Below, in pieces: positions 40,210-41,454 of a DNA stretch of 64,000 bases (position 1 is its first letter; each line of letters begins with the position of its first letter). The position numbers and the translations under genes are program-made. Source of the DNA: Shigella phage sb3; sequence record PQ666541. One strand, written 5' to 3'. Below the pieces are notes generated by a model that searched no databases, was not told where the DNA came from, and worked only from the letters and a program-made list of their open reading frames with translations.

Positions 40210-40773
40210 TTATTTACCTAGTTTAGTTATTATAGCTTCGGCAGCAGCTTTTAGCTTAGATGCGGTGTTAATACGATTTTTAATTTCAGTATACGCATCG
40301 CCAAGAACATCAAGGCTATCAGAATAAACACTTACACTATTGCGTTCGCTATTTGAAATAGAACCTTTAGTTTTACGATCAAAATCGGTGTACACGTCTT
40401 GAAGATCACGGGCTGCCTTCTTTGCATCATCCAATGCGTCAAGAGCTTTATTTAAAGCATTAACATATTTTTTAGTGTCAAACATATTCTTAGAAATTTT
40501 AACAGGTGCACGTTCAGGAGTAGCTAATGCAGATTTAGGAACCTGAGCGCCAGATGCCAGTTTCTTAGAAATTTTGAAAAATGCTTTATTGAATTTATTT
40601 TCTTGACTCATCGTAAAAGAACTATTATCGATGTTGTACATTTCAATAGCTTTAGCTTTCCACTTAAGAAAATCGCCGCGGTCTTTTGGGTCTAATTGGA
40701 AGAATACTTTAGTAAGATCTGCTTCAGATGGTAATTTTGCTGCTTCGGTTAAAAATTCGGCATAGGTTTTCAT
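40210..40773 (-). CDS. Internal protein, IPIII-like (capsid targeting sequence)
   Basis: 187 aa starting MKTYAEFLTEAAK. Confidence 0.6.
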   Translation of the reverse strand: MKTYAEFLTEAAKLPSEADLTKVFFQLDPKDRGDFLKWKAKAIEMYNIDNSSFTMSQENKFNKAFFKISKKLASGAQVPKSALATPERAPVKISKNMFDTKKYVNALNKALDALDDAKKAARDLQDVYTDFDRKTKGSISNSERNSVSVYSDSLDVLGDAYTEIKNRINTASKLKAAAEAIITKLGK

Positions 40774-40862
40774 TTAAAATCCTTGAAATAATTTATCGGT
40801 TGGTTATTAATTATTTATTACTTTGTTATTATCCGTAACAGCATTCTATATGTGATTCAAAC

Positions 40863-40890
40863 TAAAAAGCCCCAACCTTTCAGTCGGGGC
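40863..40890 (-). terminator. Rho-independent terminator
   Basis: CCCCGAC-UGAAAG-GUUGGGG hairpin then CUUUUUAG; near-duplicate of the terminator at 41422. Confidence 0.55.
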
Positions 40891-40898
40891 TAAGAATG

Positions 40899-41372
40899 TT
40901 ATTTGATTTGTTTAGCAGACCAAATGCGGTCTTTAATAATTTTTTGGATGTCTTCAACATACTCAAGAGAGTGAACATGTGGATTATCTTTGAAACTATA
41001 AGCACGGGCTAACTTTTGGCCTTCGGTTTTGATTACTAAAAGCTCTTTAAGGATAGCTTCATATTTAGAGATAATTCCTTTAACGATATTTTTTTCTTGT
41101 GCCGCTTTAGGATCTGCTTTAGGAGCAGGTTTACCCGAAGGCTTTGCAAAAGCAGCGCCAGTAGCAACTAAACTTTTCCAGGCCATACTAACTGCATTTC
41201 CCGTAAATCCTTCTGCTTTCATGTCGCGAGCAAATTGGAATCGTGATTCGTCAGAAGCATCTTTATAGGAATATTTACCCGCTGCAATGGCTGCTTTTGC
41301 GACAGCTTGAATTTCGGTGCTAGATGCTTCATTTAACACCGCTTCATTTAAAAATTGAGCATATGATTTCAT
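40899..41372 (-). CDS. Internal protein, IPII-like (capsid targeting sequence)
   Basis: 157 aa starting MKSYAQFLNEA; late promoter upstream. Confidence 0.55.
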   Translation of the reverse strand: MKSYAQFLNEAVLNEASSTEIQAVAKAAIAAGKYSYKDASDESRFQFARDMKAEGFTGNAVSMAWKSLVATGAAFAKPSGKPAPKADPKAAQEKNIVKGIISKYEAILKELLVIKTEGQKLARAYSFKDNPHVHSLEYVEDIQKIIKDRIWSAKQIK

Positions 41373-41412
41373 CTTATTTCCTGTTTTAATTCGTGGATTT
41401 AATATACTACTA

Positions 41413-41420
41413 TATTTATA
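41413..41420 (-). promoter_or_regulatory. Late promoter TATAAATA
   Basis: Minus strand gTATAAATAtag about 35 nt upstream of ATG 41372. Confidence 0.5.
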
Positions 41421-41421
41421 C

Positions 41422-41450
41422 TAAAAAGCCCCAACCTTTCGGCTGGGGCT
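41422..41450 (-). terminator. Rho-independent terminator closing the tRNA/stable-RNA operon
   Basis: CCCCAGCC-GAAA-GGUUGGGG hairpin then CUUUUU on the minus strand. Confidence 0.6.
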
Positions 41451-41454
41451 AAGC

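Follow-up and report, generated by a model that had tools for sequence, protein, structure and literature searches.

Shigella phage sb3 (sequence record PQ666541) carries, in the 64,000-nucleotide (nt) stretch analysed here and called the window, two small open reading frames (ORFs) between its rnaC and e.8 genes, each beginning with what resembles a capsid-targeting sequence (CTS) of the T4 type. One of the two, ORF157, lies between near-duplicate transcription terminators. The question raised by this locus is whether the duplicated terminators mark the ends of cassettes that come and go by recombination, and whether the genes so arranged encode internal proteins that are injected with the phage DNA. 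We give a probability of roughly 70% to the reading in which positions 40178–41450 form a hypervariable Tequatrovirus accessory locus with two independent cassettes, carrying genes for injected proteins and moved by recombination at short repeats. The window itself belongs to a Tequatrovirus closely related to T4, and its segment 39600–42000 is 98.7% identical to Shigella phage pSs-1, with 976 matching phage records.

The minus strand codes every gene at the locus, and in order of transcription one finds the tRNA cluster, rnaD, rnaC, terminator t1, ORF157, terminator t2, ORF187, terminator t3, an early promoter and e.8. The coordinates and leaders of the two CTS ORFs (187 and 157 codons) are as a first-pass annotation of this DNA had described them. 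The features of the two cassettes, in the order in which they are transcribed, are as follows.

41422–41450, minus strand: terminator t1 (stem 41427–41450, T-run 41422–41426), orthologue of the one terminator that follows rnaC in T4; from a terminator scan.
41413–41420, minus strand: late promoter box TATAAATA, an exact T4-type match, 40 nt 5' of the ORF157 start and 1 nt past the T-run of t1.
40899–41372, minus strand: ORF157, candidate internal protein of 157 amino acids (aa), starting MKSYAQFLNEA; from the ORF list.
40863–40891, minus strand: terminator t2 (stem 40868–40891, T-run 40863–40867), near-duplicate of t1; from the terminator scan.
40812–40819, minus strand: late-promoter-like box AATAAATA (7/8 matches), 38 nt 5' of the ORF187 start; read from the sequence.
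40742–40783, minus strand: second homology block, comprising the ribosome-binding site and the CTS-coding 5' end of ORF187, 76% identical over 42 nt to 41341–41382 of ORF157.
40210–40773, minus strand: ORF187, candidate internal protein of 187 aa, starting MKTYAEFLTEAAK; from the ORF list.
40178–40201, minus strand: terminator t3 (hairpin 40183–40201), a different hairpin, CCCTATCTAAATGATAGGG; from the terminator scan.

Both t1 and t2 consist of a 10-bp stem, a GAAA loop and a T-run, and RNA folding gives −20.6 kcal/mol (z −3.5) for t1, −17.8 (z −3.7) for t2 and −11.0 (z −3.1) for t3. The three terminators split the locus into separate transcription units. The near-duplication of about 30 nt reported in the first-pass annotation is borne out by a 33-nt repeat, CTAAAAAGCCCCAACCTTTCnnnnGGGGCTAAG, that is identical at 30 of 33 positions between 40862–40894 and 41421–41453; a repeat-family search extends the t1/t2 family to 40 nt at 88% identity. 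When up to three mismatches are allowed, CTAAAAAGCCCCAACCTTTCnnnnGGGGCTAAG occurs exactly twice in 64 kb, against 0.00 expected from 100 shuffles, which rules out a generic hairpin repeated all over the genome. The first-pass annotation had named as refuting conditions a repeat limited to generic hairpin sequence without conserved flanks and a locus invariant among relatives; with a locus that varies widely (see below), its idea is not refuted. Beyond the hairpin the repeat includes only CTT on its 5' side and TTTTTAGT on its 3' side (coding orientation), with no long conserved flanks, and any recombination would therefore be limited to ∼29–36 nt of homology. The window's other two CTS genes do not share the terminator repeat. 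Terminator t3 has in common with t1, t2 and the T4 site only the 9 nt GGGCTTTTT and the downstream flank GGTATCT. The loop of t3 (40183–40201) is inverted between phages, reading CCCTATC-TAAAT-GATAGGG in the window and CCCTATC-ATTTA-GATAGGG (locus positions ∼1282–1300, coding orientation) in the relative numbered L006 below, a difference that looks like a flip within an inverted repeat.

We compared the e.8–rnaC interval among ten IMG/VR contigs recovered with an e.8 scan and the phages T4, RB14, fPS-2, G9062 and PST (loci bear numbers of the form L003). In T4 the gap, 237 nt long, holds no gene and one terminator copy, AGCCCCGACCGAAAGGTTGGGGCTTTTT; the 284-nt intergenic region of T4 aligns to window positions 39970–40201 and 41418–41500, the terminator being the segment common to both, and t1 aligns to T4 intergenic positions 202–284. 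In coding orientation, with a slash at each junction and "term" for a terminator copy, the empty state of T4 and PST reads term/GGTATCT. Loci with ORF157 only (L003, L005 and fPS-2) read term/RGTATAAATA-ORF157-CATTC-term/GGTATCT, and RB14, with ORF187 only, reads term/AGTTTGAATC-ORF187-t3/GGTATCT. The window, L004, L006, L012 and G9062 carry both cassettes in series. In close relatives the presence of one cassette is thus independent of that of the other, and the junctions coincide exactly with terminator copies. The ORF157 unit is bounded by two copies of the ∼29-nt terminator, and its absence from RB14 and T4 matches exactly the outcome that a single crossover between those copies would have.

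These comparisons bear on several earlier proposals. The first-pass annotation had described t1 and t2 as bracketing a discrete unit made up of the gene now called ORF157 and its late promoter, which agrees with the presence or absence of that unit among relatives with junctions at the terminators; it had also called for a comparison of internal-protein gene content and order, and the locus proves to be far from invariant, with all four states found. Its suggestion that the direct repeats could mediate cassette exchange is supported by junctions at the copies, as repeat recombination predicts, and is limited by a homology of only ∼29–36 nt.

To gauge how common the states are, we used an evenly spaced sample of 60 of the 695 records that match the T4 empty site in BLAST, so that the frequencies are estimates rather than counts over all records. 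The sample contained ∼5 empty loci (span 388–402 bp), 24 with ORF157 only (∼956 bp) and at least 9 with both genes, together with 4 whose span of ∼1086 bp fits ORF187 only, a state verified for RB14 alone. All four states are interleaved when the sample is ranked by flank identity. This pattern, which derives from match spans and is not a tree-based count, suggests repeated events rather than a single one.

Within one genome the terminator copies tend to be more like each other than like the copies of other lineages: both copies have GACC in L004 and L012, and both have GGCCC...GGGCC in L008–L010. The loci L007–L011 are more distant, with e.8 genes 80–87% identical to that of the window. The slot of L008 and L010 contains a CTS-less, membrane-like ORF of 184 aa and then a 205-aa CTS ORF, and in L009 and L011 an ORF157 homologue is followed by the 184-aa ORF; in L008–L011 these segments lie between paired terminators, both copies of which read AGGCCC...GGGCCT instead of AGCCCC...GGGGCT. 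This change amounts to one compensated C-G to G-C pair in the stem across loci (91% of cells paired), and the hairpin is therefore supported. The 184-aa ORF, MKLLKYLSWILLVPLDF..., has a hydrophobic N-terminus and lies at ∼97–652 of the L008 and L010 loci and at ∼605–1171 of those of L009 and L011.

An exact TATAAATA stands directly 3' of the first terminator in most cassette-bearing loci (L003–L005, L008–L012, L014 and L015), and L006 and L007 have AATAAATA in its place. In L008 and L010 each terminator copy is directly followed by TATAAATA, so the repeated unit there is a composite of terminator and late promoter. Because the window shows no enrichment of this word (12 occurrences against 10.9 expected), it counts as evidence only through where it lies and through its conservation in orthologous loci. 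Upstream of ORF187 the window has no exact TATAAATA; RB14 has GATAAATA there.

One ORF157 allele is mosaic. The window and L006 are 94–100% identical through rnaC and t1, fall to 48–76% from just past t1 to about nt 345 of the locus (the promoter, N domain and linker of ORF157), and return to 84–100% across the rest of ORF157 and all of ORF187. The ORF157 proteins of L006 and of L007, a more distant locus, are 96% identical. Replacement has therefore affected part of the cassette, one breakpoint lying at the terminator and the other inside the gene.

What do the two cassettes encode? Both ORFs are real genes under purifying selection, with ratios of nonsynonymous to synonymous substitution rates (dN/dS) of 0.03–0.12 over the whole of ORF157 and 0.04–0.09 for ORF187; for the two genes taken together the range given is 0.03–0.14. 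ORF157 is found by tblastn in 511 phage records and ORF187 in 164, all but one of the latter at 95% identity or more, and every one of these records annotates the protein as hypothetical. An exhaustive HMMER search of ORF187 against 1.84 billion cluster representatives gave six matches, a very narrow distribution; one of the six is a 204-aa CTS protein at 31% identity, and a marginal match (E 9.6e-4) to a repetitive 869-aa protein was regarded as spurious.

Both proteins begin with a leader of the T4 type, about 10–11 residues resembling MKTYQEFIAE. The ORF187 leader, MKTYAEFLTEA, agrees with that of T4 IPII/IPIII at 8 of 11 residues, and the leaders of ORF157 and ORF187 are alike at 8 of 11. 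In T4 head maturation the prohead protease gp21 recognises the motif (L/I)-x-E followed by a small residue. According to the translations such a site closes the leader in both ORFs, as L-T-E/A in ORF187 (MKTYAEFLTE/A) and as L-N-E/A in ORF157 (MKSYAQFLNE/A), where L-N-E/A occurs again at residues 13–15. A regular-expression scan found four CTS ORFs in the window, the other two being homologues of IpIV and IpV.

The similarity to known internal proteins ends with the leader. The two genes had initially been labelled IPIII-like (ORF187) and IPII-like (ORF157), and neither name can be kept: in BLASTP against T4 IPII and IPIII, ORF187 aligns over residues 1–11/12 only (E 0.013–0.02), and ORF157 gives no significant alignment. 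Searching the window with T4 IPII and IPIII by tblastn produced no match, and no ipI, ipII or ipIII homologue is present anywhere in it. Identity with the T4 loci was likewise rejected on position, since T4 has ipII and ipIII in the e–denV interval and ipI in the 57B–trna.4 interval, and ORF157 and ORF187 lie between e.8 and rnaC. The e–denV locus of the window holds a 157-aa ORF (34698–35171, minus strand) that is 98.7% identical to IpIV of Yersinia phage PST, and the 57B–trna.4 locus an 85-aa ORF (43653–43910, minus strand) that is 100% identical to IpV of the same phage. The set of internal proteins in this phage is entirely different from that of T4. Pfam returned nothing above threshold for either ORF (the top score, 17.7 bits for Cytochrome b562, fell short of the cut-off of 30), and PHROGs places both in phrog_2280, a family listed with function unknown. 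We found no paper that names ORF157 or ORF187 and none that mentions RB69ORF148c, RB69ORF149c or RB14ncORF136c, and neither sequence occurs as text in the supplements of Silas et al. 2025 (PMC12373910).

The predicted structures share one layout. An AlphaFold2 model of ORF157 (mean predicted local distance difference test score, pLDDT, 74.5) has a CTS helix, a three-helix N domain, a disordered Pro/Ala/Lys linker and a long C-terminal helical hairpin; the model of ORF187, with a mean pLDDT of only 58.8 (too weak for a structure search), has the same layout, again with a long helical hairpin. In Foldseek the ORF157 model matched nothing in the PDB with E below 2.9, and in BFVD only its own family. 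Among diverged ORF157 alleles, the N-terminal part has a dN four to six times that of the C-terminal part. The N domain (about residues 15–80) is conserved in the proteins P0021, P0022 and P0024 (from Klebsiella phage KP01, Yersinia phage fHe-Yen9-01 and one other), whose C-terminal halves are unrelated to that of ORF157. A shared N domain joined to unrelated C-terminal halves indicates domain-level mosaicism, with the breakpoint in the Pro/Ala/Lys linker.

These results can be combined into a mechanism. The locus would occupy an insertion point at the tRNA/rnaC operon terminator, with rnaC on one side and the e.8 early promoter on the other. In cassette 1, ORF157 would be preceded by the late promoter and followed by another copy of the operon terminator; in cassette 2, ORF187 would have a weak late-type box before it and, after it, a different hairpin with only GGGCTTTTT in common with the others. 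The phage recombination system would act on the 29–36-nt terminator repeats, on the 9-nt microhomology GGGCTTTTT and on the CTS-coding block, and cassettes would thereby be deleted, inserted or swapped, either within a genome, possibly by way of excised circles, or between co-infecting phages. Neighbouring transcription units would be left undisturbed because every cassette carries its own promoter and terminator. The two proteins would reach the prohead core by means of the CTS, gp21 would remove the CTS, and the processed proteins would be injected with the DNA. Once inside the cell they would most plausibly neutralise a host defence, by analogy with the action of T4 Ip1–3 on GmrSD type IV restriction enzymes.

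The sequences on either side of the cassettes, on which one of the alternatives depends, are conserved.

41767–42598, minus strand: ten tRNA genes; from a tRNA scan.
41501–41762, minus strand: rnaC and rnaD homologues, the conserved upstream flank (97.8% and 88.1% identical to T4, respectively, by blastn).
40014–40042, minus strand: early promoter of e.8, from a promoter scan; the fPS-2 annotation predicts an early promoter at the same place.
39706–39966, minus strand: e.8 homologue, the conserved downstream flank, 98.9% identical to T4 e.8.

Rfam reports only tRNAs at the locus. The ten tRNA genes (Arg, Asn, Tyr, Met/Ile-type CAU, Thr, Ser, Pro, Gly, Leu and Gln) are without segB; T4, by contrast, has eight, with segB inserted after tRNA-Arg. 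As defined mechanically, the e.8 ORF begins 19 codons 5' of the start annotated in T4, and this extension (39967–40023, minus strand) reaches into the early-promoter region; the true start is likely to be the T4-type one at 39966. The early-promoter region upstream of T4 e.8 is also ∼80% identical to window positions 22784–22843 and 24240–24305, which probably reflects an extended T4 early-promoter consensus before other early genes. On the far side of e.8, the slot of T4 e.7 holds an unrelated 181-aa ORF (39119–39664, minus strand) that shows no similarity to T4 e.7 and falls in phrog_6869, a family listed with function unknown; in RB14 and PST the slot contains a further, different small ORF. 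The e.7 slot is a second variable slot adjoining the locus of ORF157 and ORF187.

Several observations weigh against the proposal of injected-protein cassettes moved at short repeats. The 3' junction of the ORF187 unit rests on the 9 nt of GGGCTTTTT only, as shared by t3 and the main terminator, and the expression route of ORF187 is uncertain given a promoter box with 7/8 matches and t2 directly upstream. Pfam (both ORFs) and Foldseek (the ORF157 model) revealed no sequence or structure similarity to known anti-defence proteins, and with all database records calling the proteins hypothetical, we only infer their presence in the virion and their injection. The repeat, moreover, is short and itself a functional terminator, so that selection for termination could keep the copies alike, and cassettes could also move without the terminators if the whole locus were replaced by exchange in the long conserved e.8 and rnaC/tRNA flanks. 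An alternative built on these last two points would have t1 and t2 alike through the needs of termination or through copying on one occasion along with the cassette, with no later role, and would attribute gain and loss to the flanks in mixed infections, possibly boosted by homing endonucleases such as SegB. It has in its favour a repeat restricted to the hairpin and a few bases around it, flanks that are 94–100% identical over hundreds of bases between phages, and the position of segB next to tRNA-Arg in T4 and PST; other terminators of the window differ in sequence yet look functional, so that termination alone would not call for this particular sequence. Replacement through the flanks, however, transfers existing states and does not create them, and the four states differ by exact repeat-bounded unit lengths. 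The tendency of copies within a genome to share variants (L004 and L012; L008–L010) points to conversion or recent recombination between copies, and the mosaic breakpoint of L006 falls immediately past t1. For these reasons we consider the alternative unlikely.

A different origin for the duplicated terminator would be the duplication of a gene, with ORF157 and ORF187 as old tandem paralogues and the second terminator a relic of that event rather than an exchange site. We hold this to be a tentative possibility. Both ORFs match the same PHROG over its full length and have the same predicted layout (CTS helix, three-helix N domain, disordered Pro/Ala/Lys linker and long helical hairpin), the 205-aa ORF of L008 and L010 aligns to ORF157 (E 1e-7 to 1e-9) as well as to ORF187 (E ∼2e-4), and the annotators of RB14 recorded similarity to two adjacent RB69 ORFs. 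When ORF157 and ORF187 are compared directly, however, BLASTP and profile–profile alignment with hhalign align the CTS only; the terminators are 91% identical, so that the ages of genes and terminators do not match unless the terminators have been homogenised; and ORF187 ends in a different hairpin, t3. Duplication also accounts for the origin of the genes and not for the four-state polymorphism, and it is compatible with movement at short repeats rather than exclusive of it. On the basis of the bridging 205-aa ORF, the shared predicted layout and phrog_2280, the two genes may be old paralogues. It is, finally, quite improbable that the ORF products are not packaged at all, the CTS-like N-terminus having come along with a recombining conserved 5' block and the proteins acting late inside the infected cell. 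The CTS-less 184-aa membrane-like ORF in the same slot of L008–L011 indicates that the slot is not reserved for internal proteins, and we found no proteomic records for either protein. Set against this, the CTS is conserved as protein over diverged alleles (MKSYAQFLNE, MKTYNEFLTE and MKTYAQFL, with MKFKEFLAE in a Klebsiella phage protein), the leader always ends in L-x-E and a small residue, the exact late promoter of ORF157 fits expression during head assembly, and a CTS alone suffices to package foreign proteins (PMC3012670).

With injected-protein cassettes exchanged at short repeats as the preferred reading, the locus is a clear, if expected, example of the shuffling of T4-type accessory genes, which extends a published principle rather than changing it. 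What sets it apart from the published cases is the locus itself, the two unnamed protein families, and a downstream block in which a second copy of the tRNA-operon terminator is joined to a late promoter instead of an early one. Host defences encounter internal proteins before any other phage product, and in T4 three such proteins each disarm a type IV restriction enzyme of their own. Of the sequenced T4-like phages, ∼500 carry ORF157 and ∼160 carry ORF187, many of them candidates for phage therapy, and probable injected proteins encoded at a separate terminator-bounded hotspot are concrete candidates for determinants of host range. The four natural states also offer a tidy system for testing recombination at short repeats. 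A more ambitious proposal, somewhat unlikely as a whole, would make the e.8–rnaC gap a third internal-protein locus of Tequatrovirus that is not formally recognised, with ORF157, ORF187 and the 205-aa form as one diverged two-domain family of injected proteins. The fast-diverging N-terminal three-helix domain would then set specificity for host defence enzymes, for example GmrSD variants outside the range of Ip1–3, and movement would be by circles bounded by terminators, analogous to the PeSL mini-circles described below but with a late promoter.

How does the locus compare with known systems? Repoila et al. (1994, EMBO J), as cited in PMC4122927, PMC12373910 and PMC3012670, held that conserved transcription and translation blocks around internal-protein genes are thought to drive their shuffling. 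In those secondary accounts the classical loci (ipI; ipII/ipIII) resemble the present one in their ∼11-residue leader, in ORFs whose number, order and identity vary between close relatives, and in short conserved blocks with transcription and translation signals on both sides of the ORFs. The present locus differs in that ORF157 and ORF187 occupy a third position (e.8–rnaC), empty in T4 and PST; that they are not IPI, IPII, IPIII, IpIV or IpV and are annotated only as hypothetical; and that the downstream conserved block is a duplicate of the tRNA-operon terminator. T-even internal proteins are diverse defence-countering proteins that have only the CTS in common (PMC3012670). Silas et al. (2025; PMC12373910), citing Bair et al. 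2007, state that T4 Ip1, Ip2 and Ip3 each inhibit a distinct GmrSD enzyme. Like the genes of those proteins, ORF157 and ORF187 are small, non-essential and highly variable, lie in Tequatrovirus accessory hotspots and encode the shared N-terminal leader; past that leader they show no sequence or fold similarity to Ip1–3.

A further related system is that of the PromoterEarly Stem-Loop (PeSL) elements. Arbiol et al. (2010; PMC2839356) described T4-type promoter/stem-loop repeats that mediate insertion and deletion and form mini-circles, patches of homology below 50 bp being sufficient. In PeSL modules (PMC2839356; Comeau et al. 2014, PMC4122927), as here, repeated terminator-bearing motifs flank small non-essential ORFs, and each module has its own promoter and terminator; the e.8–rnaC locus likewise has motif copies flanking ORFs that vary between close relatives, with the junctions in the motif. 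The PeSL motif contains a strong sigma-70-type early promoter, whereas no sigma-70-like site occurs within the repeat unit studied here, and a late TATAAATA or its 7/8 variant stands beside the hairpin instead. The locus thus falls outside the definition of PeSL, yet the presence and absence of its ORFs follow the same pattern.

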